Of a DNA stretch of 64,000 bases, positions 1,872-64,000 are shown one piece after another. Within the stretch, counting starts at the first letter, position 1. Each line of letters starts with the position of its first letter. The position numbers and the translations under genes are program-made. Under the pieces are notes generated by a model. It searched no databases and had not been told where the DNA came from. It saw nothing but the letters and a program-made list of their open reading frames with translations. The stretch is from assembly GCA_043816305.1 (NCBI GenBank), contig JBDRHZ010000043.1, positions 42,322 to 106,321 of the forward strand, in the 5' to 3' direction. This DNA is from Patescibacteria group bacterium (GTDB taxonomy: Bacteria > Patescibacteriota > Dojkabacteria > JAHIVN01).

Positions 1872-1995
1872 AGTGGGAACTTGAACTATTAATTGAATTA
1901 TAAGGAAAAACTGGTATAGAAAGCAAGCGTTTCTTAACAATTATTTGATTCACAAGCCCGACTGTTATATTATTCATTGCCAAAGATCTCTCACT

Positions 1996-7549: not shown

Positions 7550-7789
7550 TGTTGTATGTTTTTATGGTTGTTAAGTTAACACTTCCCTGCAGCCATTTAA
7601 CCATAAAACAATATGGCCATTATTCTTCGATTATAATTTGTATAACGGAATATAGCAAAAATAGTAGCAGTAGATGTGTCAGTAGCAGGACAGCTACAAA
7701 ATATTATCTATAGCAAAACTAATTCCTATCTTGATTGACAAACGCTAAGCTAGTTTTATATAATCAAAGTTATTATTTAGTCTTAACAA

Positions 7790-8704
7790 ATGTCTGTAAA
7801 TTGTTCTATTGGAAAGAAAATCAAAAAAACAAGAGGAGATCTGGGATTATCTCAAAAAGAACTTGGAATACTTACAAACTATTCTGTCCCGACCCTCAGC
7901 CTTATCGAAAGCGGTAAGATAAATATATCAGTCGAATCATTATCAAACATAGCTATGGCGCTGAAGAAACCACTCTCTTATTTCCTCCAAAATGCTCAAG
8001 ATAAGAAGTATGAGGTTAGTACGAAACTTATTGCAATAGAGAATGAGCTTGATGAAATTAAAAGCTCTCTAAATCAGGAGGTTATAAGAGCTCGAAAATC
8101 AAACTTCAATCTTGCCGTAAGCGGAGGAGTGGGAACTGGTGACAATGGAAGATTTCATCTAATAAATGAACTAGCAAAACACTTCCAAGCGAAAGCTTTT
8201 CCAGAAAACCCAGCTGCAAATCCATACATAGAAAAATTCTACAAAGAAAAAGGCAAGTGGGGATTCCACAGCCAGCTATTCTTCTTTAAGGAAAATTTCA
8301 AGCAGCAGGCTGAGATTAAGAAGAAGCTTGGACCTGTAATTCAAGGTAGAAGTTTGTACGAAAACTTTAGAGTGTTTGCTACTGTTTGGTTCGAAATGGG
8401 CTATTTAAACAGAGTAGATTTTCAGCTGCTCGGAGATCTTTATGATCAAGCAATTCAAATCATCAGAAAACCTGATCTGATAGTCTATCTAGAAAGCGAT
8501 CCGAAGAAAATCTCAAAAACAATTCCTAGATTCAAAGAAAGAAAGATCAATTTGAACCACATTAGAAGAATTCACAGTAAATATAAAGCTTGGACGAAGA
8601 CATTTGATATAGCGCCTATTCTAAGCTTTGATATTCATAAACTCGATCTTTTTGAAAAGAAAAGCATCAAACTGATAGCAGAGGAAATTCAAAACGCCCT
8701 CTAA
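7790..8704 (+). CDS. XRE-type HTH fused to a deoxynucleoside-kinase-like domain with degenerate catalytic motifs
   Basis: The N-terminus (IGKKIKKTRGDLGLSQKELGILTNYSVPTLSLIESGK) is an XRE HTH. The C-terminal part aligns by eye to the dNK/dCK family: FPENPAANPYIEKFYKEKGKWGFHSQLFF, GRSLYENFRVFA, PDLIVYLESDPKKISKTI. The P-loop reads SGGVGTGDNG (nt 8120-8149) instead of GxxGxGKS/T, and the ERS motif reads GRS. Confidence 0.75.
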   Translation: MSVNCSIGKKIKKTRGDLGLSQKELGILTNYSVPTLSLIESGKINISVESLSNIAMALKKPLSYFLQNAQDKKYEVSTKLIAIENELDEIKSSLNQEVIRARKSNFNLAVSGGVGTGDNGRFHLINELAKHFQAKAFPENPAANPYIEKFYKEKGKWGFHSQLFFFKENFKQQAEIKKKLGPVIQGRSLYENFRVFATVWFEMGYLNRVDFQLLGDLYDQAIQIIRKPDLIVYLESDPKKISKTIPRFKERKINLNHIRRIHSKYKAWTKTFDIAPILSFDIHKLDLFEKKSIKLIAEEIQNAL

Positions 8705-9519: not shown

Positions 9520-9672
9520 ATGAAGAAATCGCAAAACCCGAAAACACCCCTCTGCCCAAGATGTTTTAATGTAATTAAAGAGGTAGATGACAAATGCCCA
9601 AGGTGTGGATTTCCACTTTTGTCAGACAACCACATAGTATATGTTGAAGACTTAACACCTAAGAACCCCTAG
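9520..9672 (+). CDS. 50-aa zinc-ribbon mini-protein (below ORF-track cutoff)
   Basis: Hand translation: MKKSQNPKTPLCPRCFNVIKEVDDKCPRCGFPLLSDNHIVYVEDLTPKNP. It has two CPxC knuckles spaced 10 aa apart. Its 3' end overlaps the convergent 9659..11206 ORF by 14 nt. Confidence 0.4.
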   Translation: MKKSQNPKTPLCPRCFNVIKEVDDKCPRCGFPLLSDNHIVYVEDLTPKNP

Positions 9673-11206
9673 TTGCCAAATCAATTGCTTTTAGTGAGGC
9701 ATTTATACCCATCAAAAACAATCCTGCATCATAAGACTCTTCATGACAAGCCATCATCAAAATATGTCTCAACCTTGCCATACTTCGCCATACGTAGTGA
9801 ACATCACTTCTTCCTAATAGTAGAGGGAAAGATTGATGGGATATTTCAAATGCTTCATAAAAGGCCTGTTCTATATTTATAAGCAAAGGTAGAAAAAAGT
9901 CTTCGTCCATTCTACACTCTACCTGATTTCTATCTTCGCGTGGCCTTACATATAAATTCTTATGGGGAAACCTCCATCTAGGAGAACCCTCTTCTACTTT
10001 TATTGAACGTGTTATCAGATCTTTGTAATCTGCAAGCACTTCACGAAATAAGCTTACCGCTTGGGGATAGACCCTCAGGCTAGCAATTAGTATTTCCTGA
10101 GGCAAACCAAGCAGATAAAAAACCGCTCTATTTCTTGCGTCTTTTAATATTCCCATCCTTTCTACCTCTGCAACAAATTCGTGCAGTGGGAGCACCTTCC
10201 CAGCGATATCACGATCCCAACCAAGTTCTCCCTTCATTCCTTTTTGAAAAGTCTTCATCCTACTAGGTATATCTTCTTCCTTCAACATCTCCATAATACT
10301 ACTAACACCATACATCAAACCAGCTTCTGCTAACTTTTGGTATAAGGTTGCAAGAAGCCCAAGACCTGGTCCATTTAGATACATTTGTCTTCTATCCAGA
10401 TCGTTTGATCGCATCAACAAGGCTTGGATAAGTTCTGGATGAAGAATTATCCCTACTGTCCGACTAGATATAGCTGTGTTTTGCAGTAAACCCAGTGCAG
10501 CTTGGGGTAAGAAAATCTGACTGTGATCTCCTGCCTCATATCTAAATCTGAAGGTATTATAGAGATAACCTAAAACAGCCATGGGAACTCCGCCATCACA
10601 GGCAATCCTTATTTCATTTCCCACACCCCAATGCTTGCGGGTAAAAACAAAAAGTTTCGTATCGATCAACTCTCTAAGTAACTGTGCAGATAGAATTTTT
10701 TCTAGATAATCAATATTTCCTAGCAGGGCCTCGTTCTTATTAGTTCTGGGCATAAAGGTAAACCTAGCCCTGCTAGACCAAAATACAAAACTATCCTCGC
10801 CCTCAGGAACAGAGAAAACCCACTGAGCAGATGCTATAAGTGTTGATTTCCCTGATCCAGGCGTACCGCATATAACATCACGCATAAAAGTATCAAGTCC
10901 TTCTGCTTCCGGAACACATAATCTCAACAACGTCCTCCAAGCATCTTGCAATTGTATAGGCAAACCTCTTACACCGCCTCGTGAACAAACAGCTCTATCA
11001 TACAAGGTAGTTATAACCTTAATAGCGGTTGGCCCCAGATTATCTAGAAGGAGCTGCTCCTCTGCAAGGCTTTCAGCCGGCCTCCGAGGTTCGGTTGACA
11101 AAAATTCCCATAAATCCCCATCCTGTCCTTCAACAGAAATACGGCCGGCACCCCCAGGATGTGGAGGTTTTGCATACCTAGCTCCTCCCGCTCTCTCTGT
11201 ACTCAT
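9659..11206 (-). CDS. P-loop NTPase of unknown family with long helical C-terminal region (atypical-composition ORFan)
   Basis: Walker A GTPGSGKST (aa 114-122; nt 10844-10867 encode GTPGSGKS). A possible Walker B lies at IRIACDGG. The N-terminus is Gly/Pro/Arg-rich. My rough hand count is 18 Lys versus 42 Arg, against about 48 Lys and 25 Arg in DnaA. The start ATG overlaps the upstream stop (TAATG at 11204-11208). Confidence 0.7.
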   Translation of the reverse strand: MSTERAGGARYAKPPHPGGAGRISVEGQDGDLWEFLSTEPRRPAESLAEEQLLLDNLGPTAIKVITTLYDRAVCSRGGVRGLPIQLQDAWRTLLRLCVPEAEGLDTFMRDVICGTPGSGKSTLIASAQWVFSVPEGEDSFVFWSSRARFTFMPRTNKNEALLGNIDYLEKILSAQLLRELIDTKLFVFTRKHWGVGNEIRIACDGGVPMAVLGYLYNTFRFRYEAGDHSQIFLPQAALGLLQNTAISSRTVGIILHPELIQALLMRSNDLDRRQMYLNGPGLGLLATLYQKLAEAGLMYGVSSIMEMLKEEDIPSRMKTFQKGMKGELGWDRDIAGKVLPLHEFVAEVERMGILKDARNRAVFYLLGLPQEILIASLRVYPQAVSLFREVLADYKDLITRSIKVEEGSPRWRFPHKNLYVRPREDRNQVECRMDEDFFLPLLINIEQAFYEAFEISHQSFPLLLGRSDVHYVWRSMARLRHILMMACHEESYDAGLFLMGINASLKAIDLATRGS

Positions 11207-11826: not shown

Positions 11827-12016
11827 AAAATCATACTCCTTTGTGCCCCCACTGCTTCAGTTTGATAAACGAAGAGACTCTAACATGCCCCAAGAGTGCC
11901 AATACAGATATGAAAGCGAAATGCGGTTAATCTACAGTGAAGATTTCGATGAGTACAGATTAAGGAATTAGATATAGTATCTACCAGCAAATTTAGCTAA
12001 ATTGATCGAAGTTGCC

Positions 12017-12541
12017 ATGGAAGAAATTTTGACAGATGAACAAAGAAGAGAAGTTATTCAAACTAGATGTTTTTCACTAATAACCCAGCGTTTCGATTTA
12101 GAATGCAATTGTTTACTTGAAGGAGAATATGCAGCATTCATTGTTCGTTCAAATATAGCAGGCGGAACAGTCTTTGGTCCAGGTAACCAGGTTCGGCCCA
12201 TACATGTAGTATTTACAGACTACTTGCAACACTTTTGTAGCACTCAGGCGATATATCTAAATTTAGATGTTTTGAAGGGCACTATCCTTGAAGCTCTAGA
12301 GGGGATCGAAGCACATCGCATAGAAACCTTCGCTCTATCTTATCCTGACGTAAGAGGCATTCTTCATTACGAGGATTTGCAAAATATCCAGCCAGAAGGA
12401 ATAGATTACGTTCAAACAAACTTTGCTGCTTTAAGCAAACTGTATCAAGTACTTACAGCATCTATTTATGACTTAATAAGAGAGCTGGCAGAGAAACAAG
12501 AATTTAAACATCTTGCAGTTCTTGCCAATAAAGAAGTTTAA
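12017..12541 (+). CDS. hypothetical protein (atypical-composition ORFan), divergent from the wHTH-NTPase operon
   Basis: ORF track 12002..12541. I prefer ATG 12017 (MEEILTDEQRREV). No recognisable motif. Confidence 0.55.
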   Translation: MEEILTDEQRREVIQTRCFSLITQRFDLECNCLLEGEYAAFIVRSNIAGGTVFGPGNQVRPIHVVFTDYLQHFCSTQAIYLNLDVLKGTILEALEGIEAHRIETFALSYPDVRGILHYEDLQNIQPEGIDYVQTNFAALSKLYQVLTASIYDLIRELAEKQEFKHLAVLANKEV

Positions 12542-19566: not shown

Positions 19567-19923
19567 ATGGTCGAGTGTGAACTAGAAGGGCGTGTCCCTA
19601 TCTTTGAAGCCAAACCAGATACTATTTATACCGGGGTTGAAGGAGCACAAGGAAATGTTGCTAGAGTAAGGTACCTAGACTTAGATACTGGAGGATTCTC
19701 TTTTTTGGATGGTTGGGATGTAGATTTGTTTATTAGGTTTAGGGTGGTGCAAGCCCGCTTTCCGGCAGGAAGCCAAGTTGCTCATCAAACCGCTGCTGGG
19801 AGGATGGTGTTTATTGAGAGGGTAGAAGCTGATACTGGAGCGGGAGCAGGAGAGTTTCGCATAATTAGGAATCTTGACTATGTAATAGTTCGACCGGTTA
19901 AACAGGCATCGGTTGCAGTTTGA
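19567..19923 (+). CDS. hypothetical 118-aa protein (atypical-composition ORFan) next to the origin
   Basis: ATG start. Sequence looks beta-rich and is Gly/Arg/Val-rich with only 2 Lys (hand count). No motif recognised. Confidence 0.5.
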   Translation: MVECELEGRVPIFEAKPDTIYTGVEGAQGNVARVRYLDLDTGGFSFLDGWDVDLFIRFRVVQARFPAGSQVAHQTAAGRMVFIERVEADTGAGAGEFRIIRNLDYVIVRPVKQASVAV

Positions 19924-29671: not shown

Positions 29672-29950
29672 GTGGCCGAAGAACAGATACAGCAAGAGAG
29701 TGTAGTAATCGAAAGAACGTTACTTGTAAATGGGGAAATTATCGCCGTATCAGCTTTTCTGGCTCTTACGGGGATTGCGATACTGAGATACTCTTCTTCT
29801 GCAAGTGTTGGAACGCTTATGATAACTGGCGGGATAGAGGTATATTTTACAGCCTTAAACAGGTTTGGATATCTAAGAAGTGCTGCAATAAAAAATATTG
29901 AAAGACTCTCACCTCAAGTGATACGAATTCTAGGTTTGAAGGAGCCATGA
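29672..29950 (+). CDS. small membrane protein (92 aa), GTG start
   Basis: Two hydrophobic segments (IIAVSAFLALTGIAIL, VGTLMITGGIEVYF). No homolog recognised. Confidence 0.3.
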   Translation: MAEEQIQQESVVIERTLLVNGEIIAVSAFLALTGIAILRYSSSASVGTLMITGGIEVYFTALNRFGYLRSAAIKNIERLSPQVIRILGLKEP

Positions 29951-39048: not shown

Positions 39049-39336
39049 ATGGACAGCGAACCTACGAGAGTACCTCGAACAGTTAATGTAGTATTGTCGG
39101 AAGGTACTTCTCTATTTCCTCTGGTTCCAGTGGCAGGAACCGGAGATTGGGACGAAACTATATCTGTTATCGGCTGGGGAGGGGATAGGCTTATTTTAGG
39201 AGGGAATGGCTCTGGTCCTGTTCCCTTTTTTTCAGGCAAGTATATGTTTGTTCAGGAAATTCTTTCTGGGATTGTTGTGAGAGTACTTCATGGTGATGTT
39301 TATTATGTTGTTCCACAAGGCTCTGTACAGTTCTGA
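39049..39336 (+). CDS. hypothetical 95-aa protein (atypical-composition ORFan 1 of 3)
   Basis: ATG start. Gly/Val/Pro-rich with 1 Lys (hand count). Looks beta-rich. Confidence 0.5.
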   Translation: MDSEPTRVPRTVNVVLSEGTSLFPLVPVAGTGDWDETISVIGWGGDRLILGGNGSGPVPFFSGKYMFVQEILSGIVVRVLHGDVYYVVPQGSVQF

Positions 39337-39358
39337 CTTGAGGTTTTGTATAGATTGC

Positions 39359-39367
39359 TGATATAAT
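39359..39367 (+). promoter_or_regulatory. perfect extended -10 element TGATATAAT
   Basis: TGn-TATAAT lies 30 nt upstream of ATG 39397. Confidence 0.4.
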
Positions 39368-39396
39368 CAGGGTTATCTGCCATATTTAGTAAAATA

Positions 39397-39744
39397 ATGG
39401 AGCTACTACATCGATTTACCAGCTGGATGTGTGAAACGAGAGATACGGCAAAGTCTGAGCAAGTATTTGATCAATTCATATCCAGAAGAGATCCTGCAAC
39501 GAGAAGACGGCTAGAGACAATACTAGTAAGAACTATCCTAGGTTCTAAAGTAGTAGGATTGGAAATAATAGCCCTAAGTTCTTATTCTATATTAGGGTTA
39601 GGCCTTACGATTGGTATTTGGGAATGGTCGAATGGAGAAGAAGTCAAGTTTTTAATCCGGCAAAGACTTAGAGATGTAGAATTGGTGATGAAATTGAAGG
39701 GAGTAGAAGCGGTAAGGGCTTTGTTTATGGGAAATCAAAGGTAG
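39397..39744 (+). CDS. hypothetical 115-aa protein with central hydrophobic segment(s) (ORFan 2 of 3)
   Basis: VVGLEIIALSSYSILGLGLTIGIWEW suggests one or two TM helices. The flanks are Arg-rich. Confidence 0.5.
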   Translation: MELLHRFTSWMCETRDTAKSEQVFDQFISRRDPATRRRLETILVRTILGSKVVGLEIIALSSYSILGLGLTIGIWEWSNGEEVKFLIRQRLRDVELVMKLKGVEAVRALFMGNQR

Positions 39745-39777
39745 ATAATTCAGAAACATTAGTGCATAGATTAAGCC

Positions 39778-40332
39778 ATGGAAATCGAAGCTATACATAC
39801 AGTTCTCGAGTTTGACTATATCCCATCGCAGCAAGTTTCGGCTTTAATACCTGATAAAGCAGGTCCCATCCAAGCAAGAACCGGAAATTTCCGTGCCGGT
39901 CCATTTACAGTAGATTTCATTAGAGGAGCTAAGCTTGAAGTAGTGGGGCTTTTGCATTTCAAACTTGATGCTTCACGTTTAAACTATGGTTTTCTTGTTC
40001 GAGATATGGATAGTGCTGGGGAAAGATTGTATTGGCTTTCGAGCAAAGCTCTGTCTTTGGACCAGCTTTATGAAATAGGCGGAGTGCAGGCATTTGACTT
40101 TCGGAGAGATAATGGTGAGCGTTTTCGGGTAGTGGTAAATATAACTGGAGAGAAAGTTGTTGTTAGGCTGGATGAGGTAGGGGAGTATCCTTATCCGGCA
40201 GGCTTTGTCGGCGCAACTGGATTTGAAAAGACGGTAGTTAGCCCAGAAAATATTCGTGATCTTATACACGCTATAGGGTTCTTTATCGAGAGTAATTTTG
40301 ATGTTGCAACCATAAGAGCAGCATTTAGGTAG
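39778..40332 (+). CDS. hypothetical 184-aa protein (ORFan 3 of 3)
   Basis: ATG start. Looks beta-rich. No motif recognised. Confidence 0.55.
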   Translation: MEIEAIHTVLEFDYIPSQQVSALIPDKAGPIQARTGNFRAGPFTVDFIRGAKLEVVGLLHFKLDASRLNYGFLVRDMDSAGERLYWLSSKALSLDQLYEIGGVQAFDFRRDNGERFRVVVNITGEKVVVRLDEVGEYPYPAGFVGATGFEKTVVSPENIRDLIHAIGFFIESNFDVATIRAAFR

Positions 40333-46444: not shown

Positions 46445-47419
46445 TTAAAAGAGAAGATGTCCTAATCTTTCCAATGCAGTTACTTTGAATACTCTGAGGT
46501 CTGGTGTAAGGGTTTCCTCGGCAAGGACGGTTTGTACAATATGTTGAAGAGCTGCAGGATGACATCTCCTAAGCTCACGGAGAAGAGATTCTGCTTGAGA
46601 ACCCCCAGGGTCTGATGACAGCATTGTGTTGAGAAGTCTTCTTTGGGCATCGACATCATCGGGTGTTCCAAATATTGCAATTTTTATCTCGGTCGTTCCT
46701 CCTACTTTGAGTACATCATCAAGTTCGTATAGTACTGTTGGAGGAACTTCTGTTGTTGCAGGAGGAGTAGACCTTGTTGTTACAACCCTTTGTCGGGGAA
46801 TTTGCTGTCCTGCTGCAATTAAAGCTGCTGATCTCATTGCAAGTACATTTGCCTGAGCATTTTTTATAACTCCAGGAAGATCTAGTTGGATAAGAAGCTC
46901 AATTACAGAAGGTATAGAGTTATCAGCGCAGTACCTTTCAACAACAAGAGCAAGATCTGGTAAATTTAAGGCTTGAAGATTGTCACGAACAGATCCGTTT
47001 TCGGTTGGCTGTGAGAAAATTTGGGTTCGTATTCTGGAAATGAGTGCTAGTTTATCATGAAAAGTAATAAAACTACCTTCTACATAATCATATACGACAG
47101 TTCTAGCTCGTAGCCTTGCATCTGGAATCATACCTTGGATAACTTCTGTAAATCTTCTAGCTGAATATGTGGTGTCTTCAAATTTCCCCGTTTTCAGAAA
47201 TAACTTAACGAGCCCTTCTCCTTGTTCGACTTTATGTTTTCTATCTATCTCGGCTGCTGTTTGTCTGGCAAAGTGTTCTTGAAGTTCCCGTTGTCTAAAC
47301 GAGGGACCGTTTACCGATCTGTTCACAGCCTTTCTTGCCTGAGCTGCATCTAGCTTTGAAGTGTCTTGATCTGTGATAGCGTTATCACCACGTTGTCTTA
47401 GGGATTCATGAATTGACAT
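46445..47419 (-). CDS. hypothetical 324-aa protein (atypical-composition ORFan)
   Basis: Long clean ORF. Arg/Ala/Leu/Thr-rich and looks helical. No motif recognised. Confidence 0.6.
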   Translation of the reverse strand: MSIHESLRQRGDNAITDQDTSKLDAAQARKAVNRSVNGPSFRQRELQEHFARQTAAEIDRKHKVEQGEGLVKLFLKTGKFEDTTYSARRFTEVIQGMIPDARLRARTVVYDYVEGSFITFHDKLALISRIRTQIFSQPTENGSVRDNLQALNLPDLALVVERYCADNSIPSVIELLIQLDLPGVIKNAQANVLAMRSAALIAAGQQIPRQRVVTTRSTPPATTEVPPTVLYELDDVLKVGGTTEIKIAIFGTPDDVDAQRRLLNTMLSSDPGGSQAESLLRELRRCHPAALQHIVQTVLAEETLTPDLRVFKVTALERLGHLLF

Positions 47420-53133: not shown

Positions 53134-53958
53134 ATGGAAAGTCTCTCATTTATAAGAAAGGAAAGAGAAATTCCCTTTTTTAGGGTAGATGGAAGTGGGA
53201 AAATTGAACTAGCATTACCTGAAGACTGTTTAGACATGGCCCCTATATCAGTATCCTTGAAGTTTGTGAAACCTATTAAAACTAGTAAAGATCAACTCCA
53301 GGATTGGGGTTTCATTGGGAAGAAACTTGCTGGTTTCGTGGCAGGACTTTCAGAACGATTCAATGAAGTAACTGATACTTTTGGATTAAGGACTGCAGTA
53401 ATTGATATCCTTAGGAGATTAGGTGTAGAAACAGCCGAGTATAGGGAGAAAAGACTTCCTTGTATAGTCCAGAATGTTACTAATCTGGCCGGCTTACGGG
53501 AAATTACGAAAAGGTATAGGGGAACGATTGATGCTATTGGTAACATGGTAACTTACGAGGCTAGGGTGTTGGTAGATTTCACTACTGGAGCTATAATTGT
53601 TCCAAGAGATCAAGTATATCCTACACAAAAGGCTTCAAGAAATCAAGGAGTTATTGCTTTAAGAATTGCTCTTGGTCAACATTTTGGTTATGCGGGAGAA
53701 TTTACTAAGGGCGAAGTGCATACAGTAATGACTTATCGTATTGAGGATGATTCTAGGGAGTGGCAGTCTGAAATGGTTCGAAGAGTTTTTGATATGTCTA
53801 TTGCATTGTTTAATTTGGGTATAGAAGCGAGAGATTTAGGAAGGAATCAGGTAGCAAGTAGAAGAGTATCTTCTCGACCAAGGTCTTATGTTGTAGATTG
53901 GAATGTTCCAGGCAATACTCCTCACCCTTATACTCCAGGTCCATTTGCCAGAAAATAA
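53134..53958 (+). CDS. hypothetical 274-aa protein (atypical-composition ORFan) with basic Pro-rich tail
   Basis: Clean ORF with an ATG start. C-terminus RRVSSRPRSYVVDWNVPGNTPHPYTPGPFARK. No motif recognised. Confidence 0.55.
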   Translation: MESLSFIRKEREIPFFRVDGSGKIELALPEDCLDMAPISVSLKFVKPIKTSKDQLQDWGFIGKKLAGFVAGLSERFNEVTDTFGLRTAVIDILRRLGVETAEYREKRLPCIVQNVTNLAGLREITKRYRGTIDAIGNMVTYEARVLVDFTTGAIIVPRDQVYPTQKASRNQGVIALRIALGQHFGYAGEFTKGEVHTVMTYRIEDDSREWQSEMVRRVFDMSIALFNLGIEARDLGRNQVASRRVSSRPRSYVVDWNVPGNTPHPYTPGPFARK

Positions 53959-53982: not shown

Positions 53983-54330
53983 TTAGCCTAGTTGCCACTG
54001 AAAGATTCTCAGCTTAATCACATACTTTTCTGATACTTTTACACCTTCTTTTTCCAGCAGCTCCTTCTGTAAATCCTTAGTTACTTCAGGATTTCGTATG
54101 CTTATGTAGCCATTTGAGTTTATCACTCGCCACCAGGGGATATGTACTCCTTCGGGTGTGTTTCTGAGCGCCCAGCCGACCTGACGAGCAGCTCTTGGCG
54201 AGCCGATGAGTGCCGATATGAAGCCGTAAGTAGTTACTTTGCCTTTTGGGATTCGGGAGACTGCCTTGTAAACGCGTGAGTTGAAGGACACGAATGCAAA
54301 CGAATGAACGAATTTAATTAATGCAAACAA
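53983..54330 (-). CDS. MGMT-family DNA-binding protein, alkyltransferase-like (ATL) type lacking the acceptor Cys
   Basis: IPKGKVTTYGFISALIGSPRAARQVGWAL, then IPWWRV where MGMT has PCHRV. Confidence 0.7.
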   Translation of the reverse strand: MFALIKFVHSFAFVSFNSRVYKAVSRIPKGKVTTYGFISALIGSPRAARQVGWALRNTPEGVHIPWWRVINSNGYISIRNPEVTKDLQKELLEKEGVKVSEKYVIKLRIFQWQLG

Positions 54331-54956
54331 AGTTTCTGCACTATCTCAGCATGAACGTCTTGGATAGACTGTTCGCCGTTGATTTTTATCACAATCCTTT
54401 GTTTCTCATAAAATTCAAGCATTGGATTCATTTCTTTTAGGTCAGTGTTGATCCTTTTTAGAGCAGCTTCTTTCGTTTCATCTTCTCTTTGAAAGAGTTT
54501 TGATCCGCATTCATCGCAGATTCCGGGTTTTTGGGGTTTCGGGGTGGTAAGGATATTGTAGCTGATATTGCAGTGCTCATTTGAACATGTCCATCTGCCT
54601 GCTATTCTGTGGAGTGCATTTTTCTTGCTTATGTCGATGAATATTACTTTGTCAAATTTGTAGCTCTTGTCAAATGCCTTTGCTTGAACCAGTGTTCTCG
54701 GAAATCCATCAAACACAACACCTTTTTGACAATCATCTTCTGCAAGTCTTTGTGAAACTATTTTCAAGATAAGTTTGTCAGGTATATAATTCCCTTTGTC
54801 GATATAAGAGCGCACTTCCTTTCCAAGTGGAGATGTTTTATCAATCTCTCTTAGAAGATCCCCACTCGAAATATGAGGTACGTTCAATTCTTCGGCAATT
54901 TGTCTAGCTTGGGTTCCCTTTCCTGAAGCTTTGATACCAACTATAAGGATATGCAT
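54318..54956 (-). CDS. adk: adenylate kinase (zinc-lid type)
   Basis: GIKASGKGTQA P-loop, VVFDGFPRT, and lid Cys residues CSNEHC...CDEC. Confidence 0.9.
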   Translation of the reverse strand: MHILIVGIKASGKGTQARQIAEELNVPHISSGDLLREIDKTSPLGKEVRSYIDKGNYIPDKLILKIVSQRLAEDDCQKGVVFDGFPRTLVQAKAFDKSYKFDKVIFIDISKKNALHRIAGRWTCSNEHCNISYNILTTPKPQKPGICDECGSKLFQREDETKEAALKRINTDLKEMNPMLEFYEKQRIVIKINGEQSIQDVHAEIVQKLCLH

Positions 54957-56612: not shown

Positions 56613-59600
56613 CTACTTCACCGGTATTCCATCAGGCCAGCAGTGATTCTTGTAGTCACAGTTTTCGCAGTGTCTATACTCCTTGGTCCTGTCAAATTTC
56701 AAATCTCTAATTTGGTCCATTGTTTTACATATTAAGGTTTTGAGATCCTCTATATCTTCGCTTTCATATTCAAATTCTTCTTTTTTTGCCTTTTTACCCG
56801 GTTTTGATTCCAAGAAGTCGAATTCTCCTTTTACCACATCATAGTTGAAATTCCGATCCAGCTGGGAAAGTAGTTTATAAAAGTTCAGCTGTCTGATCAG
56901 GTCTCTATCAGAATATTTTGTCTTGCCTTCGATCTCACCACGCGATTTTGGAGTTCCAGTTTTGTAATCTGTTACTTTTATTGTCTTTCTATCTCTATCT
57001 ACCCAGTCCATACGGTCAATCTTGCCTGATAGGGGAATGTCTCCCAGATACACTTTTTTGAAGCCGAAGGAATACTCTATGAAAAGAGGTTCCCGGAAGG
57101 TTTCCTTGTTATTCTCAAAGTATCTCTCTAGAACTTCCTTTCCCCGGTTTAGTGTCGGTTGAAATTCCTGATCAGTTAAAATTTCATTTCTTAGTGCATT
57201 TTCATATTCTAAAAGCAGAGAATCCGGTTTAGGTATTTTATGAGTCTTTTTGAATGTTTTAAAGAATATTTCAAGTGCTTTATGGATTGCAGTTCCAAAA
57301 GCTAAATGTACTGCTTTTGCCCTTGGTGTGCGAAGTACATTGTTGATCTTGAATTTGTAATGGCATTTCAGATATGTGTTTAATGCTGTGACGCTGAGTT
57401 TCATATTGCTGATGACTGATTTGAGAAAGTTTTCTTCTTCCAGGTAAATATCCTCAATTTTTTTTGTTACCGGAAGCTGTAGTTGTGCAATATCGTTCTG
57501 TGAAACGGCTTTTTCAAATTGTTCTATATTTACTTTTTCGATAAGTTTCCTTTCTATCTCGCTTATGAACATCGAAGGGACTGTTTGTCTGGTATAGCCG
57601 CCGCCTGGATAATTTTCGGCGTAGGTTAGAAAAATCTCTTTCTTTGCGCGGGTAAGGGCAACGTAGAACAACCTTCTCTCATCTTCGTTTTTCTCTTTTT
57701 TATCAACCTGTGTGTTTTTGACGATTCCTTCAGGAAGCTTGATTGCCTCCCGATTTGGATTATTTCCCCATTTTTTGTCTATGCACTTTGCAATGAATAC
57801 ATATTCAAATTCAAGTCCCTTGGATTTGTGAGCAGTCAGCAGTTTCACAGCCTCAGCATCTCCCGCCAGAGGCTGCTCTTCGATCTTGATGCCGTTCTCC
57901 CTCATAAGCCCGATATTCTCCAGGAACTTTTCAAGGTTCAGTGTATGGTCTGCCCGGTTCAAGCTTTTTATTTCGTTGAAAAATGTGTTGAGGGTTCTGA
58001 TGCGGGTTGTGTTCAGTTTATCTGAAAGAATCCAGTTCAGGAAGTTGCTTTCCTGGATAACTGTTTCAAAAAATTTAATAAACGTTGCATTTGCATTCAG
58101 ACTCTGCCATTCATTCAGCTTTTGCACAAATCTGATAAATTTATCTGCTTCCGCTAGATCAGTCTCGTTGAAAACATCTTCATCTATGATTGTATCTAGA
58201 AGATTTAGCTTTTTTTCAGACGAGAACCTGGCTAGTTTCAAGATGTCCAGTTTATCAAATTCGAGGAAGTCGAAGTTCAGAAGAGTGAAGATGTCGATGT
58301 CATTGCTTGGTTTTGTTTTTAGCTCATTGATTACTTTCAGAAGAATCAGAAGCCTGTTGATATCTCCGTCTTCAAGAATATTTCTCCCAGTAGCTATTTC
58401 GAATCTTATCCCGACTCTAGACAAAGCATCCTTTATATCGTCCACGTCTCGGTTATTTCTGACAAGTACTGCTATTTGATCAGGATCGACCTTGTTCTTT
58501 ATCAATTCTTGTATCCTTTGGGCGAGAAAATCATTTTCAAGCGAAGCATTCGAAAACTTAGCAGTCTTCAAGGCTATATTCTTATGGTTGATTTCACTTC
58601 GAAGATTCTTATTTACATCTTTGAGTTTCAAGAGATTCTTTTTGATAAGGCTTCTTGAAGCATCCAGGATGTGCTGGCTTGAACGGTAGTTTGATGTTAA
58701 TGTAATGATTTCCGTCTTATCGAAGAGATTTTTGAAGTAGAGAACATTTTCAAGAGAAGCCCCCTGAAAGCGGTAAATGGACTGCTCATCATCTCCAACA
58801 ACAAATATGTTTGGATTTTCCCAGTGATCAGTAAGCAGTTTCACGATCTGGTTTTGGGCAGAATTGGTGTCTTGATATTCATCAACGAGAATGAAGAGGT
58901 ATCTTTCCTGCAGTGTGAGCTTGAGATTCTTGTCTTTTTTGAGTGTTGCTACGACGAAATTTATCATGTCCTCAAAGTCGTATCTTTGTATCTCTTTGAG
59001 TTTCCTCTGGTAGCTTCTGTAAATCAGCAGTAATTCCTGCTGTTTTTGGTAATCACGCTTCATCTTTTCGTATTTTGCATAAGGCTTTCCTGTCCTGGGG
59101 TTTATTTGCTTTTTCTCAGTTTTTAGCTGTTTTGACTCGTTATCCAGGAGTGAAGAGTAACCACTAGGATTAATTCCCTCACGTTTGAGGTTCTGTATGT
59201 TTTGGATGATGTCCTGTAAATAATAATAAGGAGTATTGGCTGGTTTTAGGGCATCTAGGTCGGTTGAATCAATCAATTCCTTAAATACCTGAATTCTCTC
59301 AAGCTCTGAAAGTGGAGTGGTATCCTCTGAAATCTGAAAGAATTCTCCATATTCTTTTATGACTTCAGTGCAGAATGAGTGAAAAGTGTTGATATTTACA
59401 TAGTAAGCTGTCGGACCGATGATCTCAACCAGTCTTTCTCTCATAGCCTTCACGCCGCTTTCAGTGAAAGTAAGGGCAAGAACTGATCTGGGGTCGGTGT
59501 CTGTTTTTTGCAGTATGTTAGCGATACGCATCGTGAGGGTCATCGTTTTTCCCGTGCCGGGACCGGCGATGATCATGACAGGGCCATCCAGCGTATCAAC

Positions 59601-59654
59601 TGCTTGTTTTTGCTCTTTGTTCAGCTTTTTGTAGAGAGTAGAGAAGTATGGCAT
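56613..59654 (-). CDS. UvrD-family helicase fused to a C-terminal PD-(D/E)XK / Cas4-like nuclease (AddA/AddB-like)
   Basis: AGPGTGKTMT, VDEYQDTN, VVGDDEQSIYRFQGA, SNYRSS, TAHKSKGLEF, VALTRAKKE. The C-terminus has CHYKF...DRMD...TDYKTG...CENCDYKNHC, a four-Cys cluster plus nuclease core. Confidence 0.85.
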   Translation of the reverse strand: MPYFSTLYKKLNKEQKQAVDTLDGPVMIIAGPGTGKTMTLTMRIANILQKTDTDPRSVLALTFTESGVKAMRERLVEIIGPTAYYVNINTFHSFCTEVIKEYGEFFQISEDTTPLSELERIQVFKELIDSTDLDALKPANTPYYYLQDIIQNIQNLKREGINPSGYSSLLDNESKQLKTEKKQINPRTGKPYAKYEKMKRDYQKQQELLLIYRSYQRKLKEIQRYDFEDMINFVVATLKKDKNLKLTLQERYLFILVDEYQDTNSAQNQIVKLLTDHWENPNIFVVGDDEQSIYRFQGASLENVLYFKNLFDKTEIITLTSNYRSSQHILDASRSLIKKNLLKLKDVNKNLRSEINHKNIALKTAKFSNASLENDFLAQRIQELIKNKVDPDQIAVLVRNNRDVDDIKDALSRVGIRFEIATGRNILEDGDINRLLILLKVINELKTKPSNDIDIFTLLNFDFLEFDKLDILKLARFSSEKKLNLLDTIIDEDVFNETDLAEADKFIRFVQKLNEWQSLNANATFIKFFETVIQESNFLNWILSDKLNTTRIRTLNTFFNEIKSLNRADHTLNLEKFLENIGLMRENGIKIEEQPLAGDAEAVKLLTAHKSKGLEFEYVFIAKCIDKKWGNNPNREAIKLPEGIVKNTQVDKKEKNEDERRLFYVALTRAKKEIFLTYAENYPGGGYTRQTVPSMFISEIERKLIEKVNIEQFEKAVSQNDIAQLQLPVTKKIEDIYLEEENFLKSVISNMKLSVTALNTYLKCHYKFKINNVLRTPRAKAVHLAFGTAIHKALEIFFKTFKKTHKIPKPDSLLLEYENALRNEILTDQEFQPTLNRGKEVLERYFENNKETFREPLFIEYSFGFKKVYLGDIPLSGKIDRMDWVDRDRKTIKVTDYKTGTPKSRGEIEGKTKYSDRDLIRQLNFYKLLSQLDRNFNYDVVKGEFDFLESKPGKKAKKEEFEYESEDIEDLKTLICKTMDQIRDLKFDRTKEYRHCENCDYKNHCWPDGIPVK

Positions 59655-59659
59655 GGATT

Positions 59660-59668
59660 TGGTATAAT
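59660..59668 (+). promoter_or_regulatory. extended -10 element TGGTATAAT upstream of ORF 59731
   Basis: TGn-TATAAT lies 63 nt upstream of the ATG. The identical 9-mer recurs at 63918-63926. Confidence 0.4.
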
Positions 59669-59730
59669 TGTTACTGAAAATATTGTATCATATTCGTGAT
59701 TTAATATTTAATATAGTCATAACGGTGGAA

Positions 59731-61110
59731 ATGCCAGAGGTAGCAAGAGGACTAAGGCTAAAGGATAGGCTCAAGGGGCTTTTTCATGCCCTTAGATATG
59801 AGATGCAGAGAGTTCCTGAACCAATCGCTACTGAAGTTGGCCTTGAAGAATTCAAAGAAAGGTTGCAGACAAAGGATCTAAAAACCTGGTTGGCTGTTAT
59901 GATAGGAGAGGAAGTGAGCAGAAGGGCTATACAACTAAGAGAAGAATACGAATTTTTGGAGGATGATTATTTCCAATTTCAGTATTTTTTACTCAGAAAT
60001 GCACTTCTAGACAACGAAATGTGTGATGCAGCAAGGCTATTGGGAACTTACTACAGAAGTGGGGAAGATGACCCCCCAGAAATAGCTAGGGTTTCAGCAA
60101 GTTTTATAGAGGGACAACTTGATTTTTTTGTTGGAAATAAGAAATTAGCACAGAGCATTATAGGAGAAATCAAAAGTACACCATCCCAGTTATTCTTTCA
60201 TGGAACTGTATGGCATAGATGGGAAAAGATTAGAGTGGCTGGTTTTCGAACAGAAGAAGGGCTTGCAACAATAACAGCAAATGCCGCCTATGCTCTTCTT
60301 CAGTACGCTTCTCCAACAAGTGAGTCGAGTCTTGCAGATTATGTTGATCTTTTGCCGGATCTAATAGCTAGGGGTGTTATAGCTGACAGAGGAAATTTAG
60401 CTGACAACTTTCTTGCAATGGTAGAGTTGATGTCTGGATCGGATATGATGGCTTTACATGGGGTTTTACTTGTGGTAGACAATAGATTCCCGGGGTTACA
60501 GATAAATCGTGGTATAGAAGGGGGAGATTCTGGGACTATTAGTTATGCATTTTATAGAGGTTCTGCCGATAAAGAGGGGGTGCGGGGGACATTTCGTGGG
60601 CAGAGATACAGGATGACTATTAGTCCAGATATTTTTGCAGCGGTAATTAGGAATACTGTTGGTTTTCAAACCCTTTTAGAAGATATTAGTATGGCTTTTG
60701 ACTCACATGATGCAGAACTTCTCGCAAAGGCTCAGCAAAGGATGGTAGAATATTTTCTTAATTCAAATGAGTTTGATGTGGAGTTTCCTAGAGAGGAAAT
60801 GGATCAAAAGGCAAAAGCCATCTTTGCAAGAAATGTTTTTTTGTCGATCTGTGGTGGGCATTATCAATATGAGGCTGCAAAATTGCTGACACTAGCAGAA
60901 TTTCTAAGAGGGCAGATCTTGGCAGGTACACATACTTATGCAATGATCAAAGATAGAGCATTAAGAATTAAGGATACTGTTGACTCCTGGCTCTATAGTG
61001 ATGTACATTTGCGTCCAGAGTTAAAGACCTATGTTGAAACTGTTGCAAGAATGGTTTACCAAGTTGTTGAGCCATTGGCTGCCTATCCTCAACGCGTTTC
61101 GACTACTTGA
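59731..61110 (+). CDS. hypothetical 459-aa protein (atypical-composition ORFan)
   Basis: Start set at ATG 59731 (MPEVARGLRL), preceded by GGTGGAA. There is only a weak, unproven resemblance of LFFHGTVWHRWEKIRVAGF (aa 154-172) to the HGT-x-GL segment of Tpt1/PARP-like ADP-ribosyl-transferase folds. Confidence 0.6.
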   Translation: MPEVARGLRLKDRLKGLFHALRYEMQRVPEPIATEVGLEEFKERLQTKDLKTWLAVMIGEEVSRRAIQLREEYEFLEDDYFQFQYFLLRNALLDNEMCDAARLLGTYYRSGEDDPPEIARVSASFIEGQLDFFVGNKKLAQSIIGEIKSTPSQLFFHGTVWHRWEKIRVAGFRTEEGLATITANAAYALLQYASPTSESSLADYVDLLPDLIARGVIADRGNLADNFLAMVELMSGSDMMALHGVLLVVDNRFPGLQINRGIEGGDSGTISYAFYRGSADKEGVRGTFRGQRYRMTISPDIFAAVIRNTVGFQTLLEDISMAFDSHDAELLAKAQQRMVEYFLNSNEFDVEFPREEMDQKAKAIFARNVFLSICGGHYQYEAAKLLTLAEFLRGQILAGTHTYAMIKDRALRIKDTVDSWLYSDVHLRPELKTYVETVARMVYQVVEPLAAYPQRVSTT

Positions 61111-61165
61111 TTAGCATTAAGCCGATGTCCAATGTATATATACTTGGGCCAACATTAGTATAAAT

Positions 61166-62131
61166 ATGTCAGAAGTACCATTTGATCCACAAGATAGAAG
61201 GAGAAAGCGAGATACAGTTCCGCTACCACGCGCAGATATACACCCTGTGGCTGTTGAGCATGGGGCTTCCTTATCAGAAGCAAGAGCTTTTAAGGCTCAA
61301 GAGCCACCTGTTCGAGCTGTATTAGGTGATCGTCCAGTATCTGAAGGCGCACCAGTTGATAATGGAGTACCGTCACCTGTCAGGCTTCCCGAATATATGC
61401 GGGTAAATACTTTTTTTGTTAGAGATCCAAGTGGAGGAGTCCTTGAAGTTTCAGATCCACGAGAATTTACTCAGGAGATGCGGCAGGCTTTGAATTCAAC
61501 CAAATTCACGTTTCACTGCAATAGAGACTATTCTGTCAACCATATTGAGTCTGACAAGGCTAGATTCTTTGCTCTGTTTGTTGCAGGTGGAGCAAGGAAG
61601 GACGTGATACTTTTTGTCGACAGATTGCAGAAAATGGGATGGGTTATGTATCGAGGTGCTTCAGATAGCCCTTTTGTGATAGATCGAGATATGAAGGTCA
61701 GGGTAGACTATAGATATGAAACGGCGGATCCCCTTCTGGATCAGGAACTTGTTGGTGCCCACAGATACTTGCCTGAATTTAGGGGGTCGGATATAGGCAT
61801 TTTACCTACTGATCTAACTGAAGATAATTATTTTGCAAGAATTGCCGATGGGCTTTTCTCGTTCCCATATAGGTTAATTGGCTGGGCTGTTTATTCATTT
61901 AAAGCTGGATCCTTGGATTTCCTCGATCCTGCTGAGGCGCATGCAGGCAATATGGGATTTTGTATATGGGATAAACGACCTTACAAAGACTTTATTTCTT
62001 CTTTTCCTATCATAAGATTTAAGTGGTATAGAGTAGGGAATGGTTTACAGAAAGTGCTGCCTTTTAAGAGAATTCTTCTCCCAGGAATTTGTTGGGTTAC
62101 GTTTGAGGATATAGAGAAAAGTGCGAGATAG
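61166..62131 (+). CDS. hypothetical 321-aa protein (atypical-composition ORFan) with Pro/Arg-rich N-terminal region
   Basis: Clean ORF. The first ~75 aa are Pro/Arg/Val-rich and probably disordered. No motif recognised. Confidence 0.6.
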   Translation: MSEVPFDPQDRRRKRDTVPLPRADIHPVAVEHGASLSEARAFKAQEPPVRAVLGDRPVSEGAPVDNGVPSPVRLPEYMRVNTFFVRDPSGGVLEVSDPREFTQEMRQALNSTKFTFHCNRDYSVNHIESDKARFFALFVAGGARKDVILFVDRLQKMGWVMYRGASDSPFVIDRDMKVRVDYRYETADPLLDQELVGAHRYLPEFRGSDIGILPTDLTEDNYFARIADGLFSFPYRLIGWAVYSFKAGSLDFLDPAEAHAGNMGFCIWDKRPYKDFISSFPIIRFKWYRVGNGLQKVLPFKRILLPGICWVTFEDIEKSAR

Positions 62132-62137
62132 GGTATT

Positions 62138-62752
62138 TTACACTCTCTCTGCTATGTGCCGTAATCCCTCGAGCGTTCTCCAGACAGTATCTTGTTCTCT
62201 GCCGTAAAGATTCGCAGCTATAGTTGATATTCTTCTCTGATTTAATCCGGGCAATTGTTGCCTAACCTGGTCAACCGCAGAGAGAAACTGATAAATTGTT
62301 GAATGCCGATGGAGTATTGCCTGTGTTATTGAACCTGTAACATTGGGATTTTCTGAACTGATGAGGAGATTTAACAGAGGTAAATTCTTTGTTATTTCAA
62401 CTATCTTTGAAGTACTCCCGATTGATCGATAATAGGGATTTCCGTCTTGTAATTGATCCGGCCTTGCAACTAACTTCAATATCATATGCGCTGCTGCTGT
62501 ATAAGCACTTTCATCTTGCAGGACTTTGATCGCTGCACGGATTACTTCTGTGGAGAGAGCATCTGCTGAGAAAACTGGAGCTAACATACCTACACTAATA
62601 GTATTTACTCCATCTTCGAGTCGTGCTAAACAGCTCATTAGAGCTCTTTCCTGGGGAGATAGGTTTTCAGGGTTAAGCCTATTTGAAGCCCTTTTTTCAC
62701 GATCTACAACTCTTCCTTTTCTTGCAAGGACTTCCCAGAGTTCTTCAGTCAT
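62138..62752 (-). CDS. hypothetical 204-aa helical protein (atypical-composition ORFan), 10 nt downstream of the YhaM-like gene
   Basis: ATG rc 62750-62752. The stop of the upstream gene is at 62763-62765. Convergent with 61166..62131, with a 6-nt gap. Confidence 0.55.
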   Translation of the reverse strand: MTEELWEVLARKGRVVDREKRASNRLNPENLSPQERALMSCLARLEDGVNTISVGMLAPVFSADALSTEVIRAAIKVLQDESAYTAAAHMILKLVARPDQLQDGNPYYRSIGSTSKIVEITKNLPLLNLLISSENPNVTGSITQAILHRHSTIYQFLSAVDQVRQQLPGLNQRRISTIAANLYGREQDTVWRTLEGLRHIAERV

Positions 62753-62762
62753 AGCCAGTTCT

Positions 62763-63704
62763 CTAATCCAAATAAACTTGTGTTCCTATCCACTTCTGCC
62801 ACTCGGAGAAACCCGGATCGCGGCCTTCGCCAAGCTTGATAGCTTTCTGAAATTGCCGGATCTGGCTTGATGCATGGTCAACAAAGTGAACTATAGCAGC
62901 TTCGATAGTAGCCGGTTTGATAGGGGAGCCATTCTCGAGCTCGCCCTGGTGGGAAATAATGATATGTTCAAGCTTCATCCACAATTCGTCAGGAAATTCT
63001 TTCGGCAGATGATCTCGAGTAAGATCTATACCCAATACCAGGTGTCCGATTAAACGCCCTTTTGTTGTCCGGATAATAGCCGTCTTTTTCAATGCTAGTT
63101 CTTCAAGTTTCCCTATGTCATGGAGGATGATTCCTGCCACAACTAGATCCTTGTCTGCTTCCGGGTAGCTTTTCAGAAGAGGCTCTGACATATCAAGCAT
63201 TTCAAGGGTGTGTTCAAGCAGCCCGCCGACGAAATCATGATGTACTTTTTCTGCAGCCGGTGCTCTTTTATATTTCTTTACAAATACTTCGTCTCCAAAA
63301 ATATCTTTAAGCAGATTCTTGAGGTCCTTACTTTTAACATCATTTATGACAGCAAGAAGCTGTGAGTACATTTTTTCGAGGTCTTTGTCAGTCGATTGAA
63401 CTAAGTCTGAAATGTCATAGTCCTCCGTTTTATCAAGTTTCTTAAGGATCATTTGAAGTTGATCGTTATATGACTGAATTTGAGCGTCTACTTTTACAAC
63501 ATCTCCTGATTCGAGATTTTTTATATGACAATTGGGGAAATCATCCTGCCAGATTTTTGCTGAAACTTCTCCTGTTCGATCTTGAAGTACCAATCGATAG
63601 TAGGGGTTTTGTGCACGGGTTTTGTGCATTTGAACTTCTTCGACAGAGAAAACTTCATCGGTGATAAAGTCTCCGTCTTTCAAGTCTTTTACGAATATTT
63701 TCAT
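62763..63704 (-). CDS. YhaM-like 3'-5' exoribonuclease (OB-fold plus HD domain)
   Basis: N-terminal OB fold (YYRLVLQDRTGEVSAKIW), then HHDFVGGLLEHTL and IILHDIGK (HD domain). Confidence 0.8.
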   Translation of the reverse strand: MKIFVKDLKDGDFITDEVFSVEEVQMHKTRAQNPYYRLVLQDRTGEVSAKIWQDDFPNCHIKNLESGDVVKVDAQIQSYNDQLQMILKKLDKTEDYDISDLVQSTDKDLEKMYSQLLAVINDVKSKDLKNLLKDIFGDEVFVKKYKRAPAAEKVHHDFVGGLLEHTLEMLDMSEPLLKSYPEADKDLVVAGIILHDIGKLEELALKKTAIIRTTKGRLIGHLVLGIDLTRDHLPKEFPDELWMKLEHIIISHQGELENGSPIKPATIEAAIVHFVDHASSQIRQFQKAIKLGEGRDPGFSEWQKWIGTQVYLD

Positions 63705-63844: not shown

Positions 63845-63952
63845 TTATTAGTTACTGAGTTCGGGCTCATTTGCTCATATGCTCACCAGCTTGCTATAGA
63901 AAAATAGGGTGAGAGGATGGTATAATGGGATATCTTTATTTGAATTATATTT

Positions 63953-64000
63953 ATGAGCGGAGAAGGAGCACCAGAAGGAGAAAACACGGGGAGACAGAAT
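63953..64000 (+). CDS. 5' end of an ORF running off the right edge (MSGEGAPEGENTGRQN...)
   Basis: ATG 63953 lies 27 nt downstream of a TGGTATAAT extended -10 (63918-63926). Only 16 codons are visible. Confidence 0.3.
   Translation, partial: MSGEGAPEGENTGRQN

Follow-up and report, generated by a model that had tools for sequence, protein, structure and literature searches.

Do three orphan genes packed between two conserved enzyme genes make up one system, or are they separate tenants of one chromosomal site? The question is raised by a 3.1-kb locus in the chromosome of an uncultured member of the Dojkabacteria, a lineage within the Candidate Phyla Radiation (CPR), where three orphan genes (ORFans), here named o1, o2 and o3, lie between a helicase-nuclease gene and the gene of a YhaM-like exonuclease (yhaM). 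A preliminary description of the 64-kb stretch of DNA under study (the window) had seen in them genes of foreign composition embedded among nucleases and helicases, and had taken this for the typical look of a conflict or defence island. Comparison with related genomes points elsewhere. We put at roughly 55% the probability that the 3.1-kb locus represents a slot for variable accessory genes in a Dojkabacteria chromosome, filled by three unrelated, fast-evolving orphans and not by one system. Such a slot would sit at what is, in the outgroup locus L003, a tight junction of yhaM followed by the helicase-nuclease; o1, o2 and o3 would be independently inherited, and their proteins may act individually.

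On one side of the slot, the helicase-nuclease gene (56613-59654, minus strand, 1013 aa) encodes the Pfam domains UvrD-helicase (2.7e-65), UvrD_C (1.1e-38) and PDDEXK_1 (1.3e-31), together with a weak Cas4 match and a C-terminal Cys cluster. On the other side, the product of the gene at 62763-63704 (minus strand, 313 aa) combines an OB fold with an HD domain and is predicted to be a YhaM-like OB-HD 3'-5' exoribonuclease; it is called only YhaM-like because its score against the NCBIfam model YhaM PRK13480 (1.6e-46) falls below the curated cut-off of that model. Between the two are o1 (59731-61110, plus strand, 459 aa, MBU0975554), o2 (61166-62131, plus strand, 321 aa, MBU0975555) and o3 (62138-62752, minus strand, 204 aa, MBU0975556), with NCBI locus tags ABIE03_06715 to 06725 for the window proteins. 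The start of o1 can be read in other ways, the longest from TTG 59668 (480 aa) and the NCBI call from GTG 59725 (461 aa). The gaps read off the sequence are 76 nt in the divergent region between the helicase-nuclease and o1 (59655-59730), 55 nt in the o1-o2 spacer (61111-61165, plus strand), 6 nt between the convergent o2 and o3, and 10 nt between o3 and yhaM, o3 lying 3' of yhaM on the same strand. The ORFan lengths, flanking enzymes, strands and all four gaps agree with the preliminary description. All three are genuine coding genes for soluble proteins, since a 459-codon stop-free run at about 40% GC has by our own estimate a chance probability of roughly 1e-13, the GC content falls regularly over the codon positions (GC1 0.52-0.55, GC2 0.37-0.42, GC3 0.31-0.32), and homologues with intact open reading frames (ORFs) exist. 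No transmembrane segment is predicted in any of the three; the pI is 5.3 for o1 and 8.8 for the basic o3.

The slot is best seen in the gene order of relatives. A collinear block is shared by the window, L003 and Candidatus Dojkabacteria STE_192 (GCA_028696515.1), a metagenome-assembled genome (MAG) of a sister species; it comprises cell-division genes, small conserved genes, yhaM, the helicase-nuclease, p178 (178 aa), a rhomboid gene, adk and a radical-SAM-like gene, and in L003, where names were assigned by size, order or sequence, it starts with FtsZ/A/Q-like and S15-like genes. In L003 the helicase and YhaM are each 66% identical to those of the window, yhaM occupies 6991-7989 and the helicase begins at 8001 with nothing between, and o1, o2 and o3 are all lacking. 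In STE_192 an o3 orthologue (P0005, 53-55% identity) stands 2 nt after yhaM and converges on an o2 orthologue (51-68% identity) that is split by a frameshift. The assembled STE_192 contigs hold no o1; its place is taken by unrelated ORFs of 293 and 263 aa, and the helicase is found on a separate contig behind a 141-aa orphan ORF and a 263-aa ORF that weakly resembles SpoIIE/PP2C, at a score under the Pfam cut-off. In L086, a Logan contig whose yhaM is 73% identical, an o1 homologue converges on yhaM at a distance of 74 nt, without o2 or o3. These arrangements, empty in L003, partly different in STE_192 and reduced to o1 in L086, indicate that the trio is no conserved unit, that the slot may be empty and that its content turns over. 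Outside the genome of the window the three are nowhere together: o1 occurs without o2 and o3, o2 without o3 and o3 without o2, and profiles of the three families found no further members among all ORFs of about 80 helicase loci. Co-occurrence across genomes was the check that the preliminary description had proposed for its island, and with yhaM abutting the helicase in L003 and the trio together nowhere else, the outcome goes largely against it.

The genes of the two flanking enzymes are themselves conserved and remain intact no matter what the slot between them holds. A genome-collection scan gave 92 relatives of the helicase-nuclease in Patescibacteria and Bacteroidota, mostly near full length and with varied neighbours; the closest, in STE_192, is 83% identical, and near-full-length relatives at 30-66% identity are spread across both groups. 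The yhaM gene is present in all four related assemblies seen and is 93% identical in STE_192. With the helicase so widespread and yhaM so conserved, neither is island cargo. Furthermore, the 5' flank of the helicase is a general accessory slot. In many of the fetched CPR loci (L021, L024-L028, L032, L072 and others) RmuC is directly 5' of the orthologous helicase-nuclease; a GNAT acetyltransferase stands just 5' of it in L035, L036, L008, L009 and L012, a MazE/AbrB plus PIN (VapBC-like) pair in L010 and L012, and a NUDIX gene in L007.

The three families are very rare. Searched exhaustively by HMMER with o1, o2 and o3 concatenated as the query, 1.84e9 representative proteins yielded just 2-4 relatives per ORFan beyond the query proteins: P0009 (427 aa, 32% identity) and the fragment P0007 (32%) as the only homologues of o1, two STE_192 pieces with P0008 (33%) and P0010 (33%) for o2, and P0005 of STE_192 with P0012 (24%) for o3. 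P0012, the remote o3 homologue, adjoins an adenosine-kinase-like gene. The remote homologues are 24-34% identical and keep conserved motifs; P0007-P0010 and P0012 each form a cluster of one and bear either no name or the label hypothetical protein. A repeat-rich protein of 697 aa, P0011, was treated as spurious, its best stretch matching the non-conserved N-terminus of o1. Word-indexed searches returned only o1 itself for o1, and for o2 and o3 themselves plus one sister-species orthologue each; scans of metagenome contigs with the o1 and o2 profiles gave no confirmed relatives. No significant match to o1-o3 was obtained in Pfam, NCBIfam, PHROGs (best E = 0.047) or PADLOC, in keeping with the earlier remark that no component matches a named system, and searches of PDB profiles gave nothing meaningful, the top match being a phage tail-tube protein at E = 0.056. 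A helix-turn-helix reading of o3 (LSPxER..L..L..G), made by inspection only, was unbacked by the Pfam, NCBIfam and PDB searches and is not claimed. The literature on Dojkabacteria and CPR orphan genes held nothing specific to the three.

The ORFans also evolve fast. Measured against STE_192, where synonymous divergence (dS) is saturated, the nonsynonymous divergence (dN) is 0.046 for yhaM, 0.088 for the rhomboid gene and 0.105 for the helicase-nuclease, as compared with 0.20-0.41 for o2, 0.42 for o3 and 0.91 for another orphan ORF of the window at 53134-53958, so that the ORFans reach about 2-9 times the dN of the genes beside them. The three orphans for which a comparison with STE_192 is possible thus exceed their neighbours several-fold in dN; in a fourth orphan slot the sequences cannot be aligned.

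Their composition is shared with many other ORFs. The window has 63 ORFs that do not overlap and are 90 aa or longer, and over these the Lys fraction, K/(K+R), is bimodal: 13 have more Arg than Lys (Arg>Lys; 0.15-0.40) and average 0.30 in GC3, and the other 50 have values of 0.50 or more and average 0.39 (Mann-Whitney p = 7e-8). Between the genes of the window the GC content is 0.346. Besides o1-o3, the Arg>Lys ORFs are those at 4614-5465, 9659-11206, 12002-12541, 19567-19923, 29672-29950, 39049-39336, 39397-39744, 39778-40332, 46445-47419 and 53134-53958, ten in all and scattered from 4.6 kb to 54 kb over about nine places. Of the 13 Arg>Lys ORFs, ten were scanned, and none of these had a significant Pfam match or a PADLOC match. 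The ORFs are sharply split into conserved genes with Lys>Arg and low-GC3 ORFs with Arg>Lys and without Pfam matches, and o1-o3 are lineage-restricted members of this genome-wide Lys-poor, Arg-rich, low-GC3 class. Comparable Arg>Lys ORFs are present in STE_192 too and are sparser in other CPR loci; in three WWE3-type loci they are directly 5' of the helicase. What the preliminary description called foreign composition is thus real in that o1-o3 differ from their neighbours, but it is common to 13 of the 63 ORFs of the window and, since these are scattered, does not single out the locus as an island. If true genome-wide, the split would give a simple compositional handle on the fast-turnover genes of episymbiotic bacteria. 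Paralogy among the orphans of the window was considered and rejected: all-against-all BLASTP gave nothing but a weak N-terminal match of o1 to 4614-5465 (pairwise E = 5e-4), which hhalign did not support.

As for expression, the 76-nt divergent region does hold the extended -10 box noted earlier, TGGTATAAT, at 59660-59668 on the plus strand with a -35-like TAGAGA at 59639; a minus-strand promoter-like site at 59737-59710 is weaker than TGGTATAAT. This promoter would transcribe o1 and possibly o2, and a terminator looked for in the 55-nt o1-o2 spacer was not found. The spacer carries a palindrome (61126-61151) and a TATAAAT directly before the ATG of o2. A regulatory role for the palindrome was rejected, its fold having z = 0.14 relative to shuffled sequences and the palindrome not being kept in the sister species. 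On the other strand, o3 may be co-transcribed with yhaM, because the gap is only 10 nt here and 2 nt in STE_192, and is possibly coupled to it in translation. The sequence TGNTATAAT has five copies in the window, each just 5' of an ORF start, three of them before Arg>Lys ORFs. TGGTATAAT itself has two copies in the window, the second at 63918 and 5' of another orphan ORF. This ORF (MSGEGAPEGENTGRQN..., starting at 63954) is 498 aa long, lies between yhaM and a DUF3467 gene, and continues past the window end at 64000 into L087 (643-2139); at the same position STE_192 has a 597-aa orphan that cannot be aligned with it, and L003 has nothing.

Taken in this way, the locus is an ordinary CPR feature, a variable slot with conserved genes on either side and hypothetical proteins of the lineage as its content. 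It resembles the flexible slots or hot spots known from between core genes, a pattern that underlies defence islands and flexible genomic islands alike, in its conserved syntenic flanks, in being empty in one relative and carrying different, fast-evolving and patchy cargo elsewhere, and in the toxin-antitoxin-like pairs that fill the equivalent slot in other CPR lineages. It differs in that the cargo comes without a known defence protein, integrase, tRNA or flanking repeat, and in that orphan ORFs like these stand one by one all through the window and are not concentrated. Several points weigh on the other side. The empty state comes from the single outgroup L003 and could be a secondary deletion, not the ancestral condition. 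STE_192 is fragmented exactly here and of low coverage, and o1 could lie in the unassembled gap. Both structure models, those of o1 and o2, are of low confidence, and the functions discussed for o1-o3 are predictions.

The alternative that survives best is that the ORFans have no functional tie to their neighbours at all, the junctions being permissive sites of turnover and the adjacency of o2 homologues to helicases a by-product of a hot spot or of old synteny. We regard it as possible, if rather unlikely. In its favour, the helicase 5' flank carries unrelated GNAT, MazE/PIN, NUDIX and Arg>Lys genes across CPR lineages, the other side of yhaM also holds a large orphan that is unalignable between the sister species (498 vs 597 aa), and Arg>Lys ORFans stand at about nine further places of the window. 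What speaks against it is the neighbourhood of o2. Two other contigs carry a remote homologue of o2, and in each of them it is directly 5' of a UvrD-type helicase gene; to that extent the preliminary interpretation is supported. In L084, P0010 ends 29 nt 5' of a UvrD-PDDEXK helicase that is 968 aa long and encoded on the same strand; in L083, P0008 starts 1 nt after RmuC, and 84 nt further on the N-terminus of a UvrD helicase begins (MQINKPDITLNSEQKQAVQHDKGPLLI). In the window, o2 starts about 1.5 kb from the start codon of the helicase-nuclease; counting this copy, the family is found beside such a helicase in all three lineages whose context can be seen. Two direct adjacencies and one near adjacency in a family known from four assemblies have, by a rough estimate, a chance probability below 1e-4. 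Moreover, the helicases of L083 and L084 appear to be a second UvrD paralogue with a 'GPLLI'-type N-terminus, that of L084 being 33% identical to a PcrA-like gene of the window (1945-4182) and 28% to the helicase-nuclease. Because the paralogue appears to be a different one, the shared factor would be the type of helicase and not one chromosomal site. A 'GPLLI'-type paralogue is also seen 3-7 kb downstream of the helicase-nuclease, on the opposite strand, in several CPR loci. The PcrA-like gene (plus strand, 745 aa) is a second UvrD-family helicase of the window, and the Arg>Lys ORF 4614-5465 (plus strand) comes after it.

Within the slot reading, then, we tentatively suggest, at rather less than even odds, that o2 is a binder or modulator of helicase(-nuclease) enzymes of the UvrD type, since both other known contigs place its homologue at the 5' flank of a helicase. 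Weighing against this part are the small number of lineages (three, two of them represented by short contigs), the way in which the helicase 5' flank collects unrelated genes, so that the adjacency could mark an insertion hot spot, and the position of the window o2, which is not adjacent to the helicase and lies on the opposite strand.

Small phage proteins such as Gam, Abc2 and gp5.9 bind and regulate helicase-nucleases of the RecBCD/AddAB type. The likeness of o2 to them is genomic only: two homologues lie 5' of UvrD-type genes and the window copy lies near one, and the single adjoining helicase that is fully sequenced (L084) is a UvrD-PDDEXK fusion. We know of no sequence or structural similarity of o2 to Gam-, Abc2- or gp5.9-type inhibitors, and o2 differs from them in being chromosomal, not phage-borne. 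With four assemblies among the 1.84e9 representatives, the o2 family gives a lead, cheap to test, towards an accessory factor of the poorly studied CPR helicase-nucleases.

The o2 protein begins with about 75 residues that are rich in Pro (16%) and Arg (12%), as the preliminary description had noticed, and that reach a predicted local distance difference test score (pLDDT) of 25-39 in the AlphaFold2 (AF2) model; the mean pLDDT of the model is 40.9, and its Foldseek results are noise. Its conserved core is marked by the motifs NTF.V.D, GA..xILxVD..K.GWVMY, GA.RYLP, WDK.P and FKW. In STE_192 the orthologue (L081, 2352-3324) is broken into ORFs of 182 and 144 aa by a frameshift just after GWVMY, which may be an error of sequencing, the MAG having low coverage (contig 69 at 3.5x), or else the mark of a pseudogene. 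Near residue 117 there is also a break within o2 in the Logan assembly of the organism from which the window comes.

A less probable alternative is that o1-o3 are after all one conflict/defence or toxin-immunity module, with o1 as a divergent Tpt1/PARP-like ADP-ribosyltransferase (ART) effector and o2 or o3 as its partner, antidote or regulator, working with or set among the flanking nucleases. We consider it improbable. Some features do fit it: the ORFans are fast-evolving, patchy and provided with their own strong promoter, the slot holds VapBC-like pairs in other CPR lineages, and the o2-o3 pair is conserved in STE_192. On the other hand, the trio is not together elsewhere, L003 lacks all three, and orphan ORFs of this kind take up about 20% of the window. 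PADLOC-DB v2 recognised no family in o1-o3, nor in ten other orphan ORFs of the window and the sister species. The helicase does match the PADLOC GajB models (1.8e-91), as any UvrD helicase would; Gabija was rejected, no neighbouring ORF matching any PADLOC model and so providing a GajA-like partner. A type II toxin-antitoxin pair was dismissed as well, o1 and o2 being 459 and 321 aa long, 55 nt apart and not co-inherited, o2 and o3 being convergent, and toxin-antitoxin domains being absent. The AbrB/MazE plus PIN pairs of L010 and L012 do have a comparable position, directly 5' of the orthologous helicase-nuclease; o1-o3 differ from them in being much larger, in having no PIN, AbrB or toxin-antitoxin domains, and in forming no co-directional overlapping pair that is inherited together.

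Neither does the locus look like an integrated mobile element or a prophage remnant, which was rejected for want of an integrase, tRNA, boundary repeats and phage or plasmid homologues. No boundary repeats of a mobile element and no integrase were found around the locus; tblastn against 50,697 phage and 72,556 plasmid records gave no match, the remote homologues as queries included, and scans of IMG/VR with all three profiles gave no relatives. With no PADLOC match, no mobile signature, no co-occurrence of the trio and a composition found genome-wide, the idea of a conflict or defence island was given up, and we advise against listing the locus as a defence island or as an ART toxin system.

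The ART question itself comes from o1, in which the preliminary description had seen a weak resemblance to the HGT...GL signature of Tpt1/PARP-like folds. The protein has three parts: a helical N-terminus specific to the lineage, a middle region bearing the conserved motifs LFFHGT...YAL.YA.PTSE (H157), and a helical C-terminal region. LFFHGT occupies residues 154-159, where o1 reads 154-LFFHGTVWHRWEKIRVAGFRTEEGLATITANAAYALLQYASPTSE; P0009 reads LLFHGTIEPTVTNIARENQFRAQEGRATFALSPDYALNYADPTSE at this place and is 35% identical over the region, the residues H, G, T, I, F, EG, AT, YA, YA and PTSE being invariant between the two. Both the motif and the distances within it (HGT-7-I-3-GF, followed by a hydrophobic strand and a YAL.YA helix) are thus present and conserved. 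The likeness to Tpt1/KptA and PARP-like ARTs lies in a hydrophobic strand that ends in H-G-T, an I..xGF/L element 7 residues on and a second hydrophobic strand, and hhalign aligns, as a lead only, the HGT region of o1 with that of a provisional E. coli KptA sequence (TPSQLFFHGT..I..G with TPPQFLYHGT..I..G), at a probability of just 8% over 30 columns. Pfam gave no family at all, be it for whole o1 at E up to 1 or for the isolated central domains of o1 and P0009 at E up to 10, and thus no ART, macro or toxin family; PDB profile searches with o1 returned no ART. Of the ART catalytic motifs, by reading, only the first (LFFHGT, H157) is present, the Tyr position of the second motif being Ile or Phe, and no catalytic Glu or Arg-His-Arg-Arg set can be assigned in the two-sequence alignment of o1 and P0009. 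The AF2 model of o1 has a mean pLDDT of 45.7, and about 26-41 over residues 150-300; the top Foldseek match in the PDB on this low-confidence model (E = 0.24, template modelling score below 0.2) is noise. The signature therefore stands as a conserved motif whose link to ARTs is unsupported, and an ART-like activity of o1, judged from sequence, would be a low-probability lead.

A bolder hypothesis goes beyond the locus. The Dojkabacteria clade, and to a lesser extent other CPR, might possess a large dedicated class of Lys-depleted, Arg-rich, ultra-fast-evolving cytoplasmic proteins (about 20% of the ORFs here) for inter-organism conflict or host manipulation, in which o2 would found a new family of UvrD-PD-(D/E)XK partners and o1 an NAD+- or phosphate-transferase with the HGT motif that has diverged very far. 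We offer this as a long shot.

In view of the missing family matches and the extremely small families, one may ask whether the ORFs are spurious, be it as non-coding DNA, as an RNA gene or as a chimera of assembly, but this is effectively refuted already by the absence of any Rfam or tRNA match in the window, the codon-position periodicity of GC, the conservation of the ORFs in STE_192 with an o2 dN well below the saturated dS, the motifs shared with remote homologues, and the presence of the same DNA in independent assemblies (Logan SRR6514274, JGI/GEM, NCBI). An RNA-gene or rRNA-like origin of a G-rich stretch was likewise discarded on the Rfam and tRNA results.

Some further observations concern the rest of the window. 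A second cluster of three Arg>Lys ORFs lies at 39049-40332 (plus strand); they are co-directional, encode 95, 115 and 184 aa, and have an extended -10 box, TGATATAAT, at 39359. The 515-aa Arg>Lys ORF at 9659-11206 (minus strand) contains a Walker-A-like motif, GTPGSGKST, and has only sub-threshold P-loop matches in Pfam. At the junction of adk and the radical-SAM-like gene are the orphan ORF 53134-53958 (plus strand) and an ORF at 53983-54330 (minus strand), which by eye only we take to be MGMT-like; neither is present there in L003. The STE_192 counterpart of 53134-53958 is 25-28% identical and has a neighbour that looks, by appearance only, paralogous; L002 7490-8332 and 8379-9026 belong to this observation too. 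Finally, adk itself (54318-54956, minus strand) is 45% identical to the STE_192 copy and 60% to the more distant L003 copy, the genes around it being 80-93% identical to those of STE_192, a pattern that may reflect gene replacement in STE_192.

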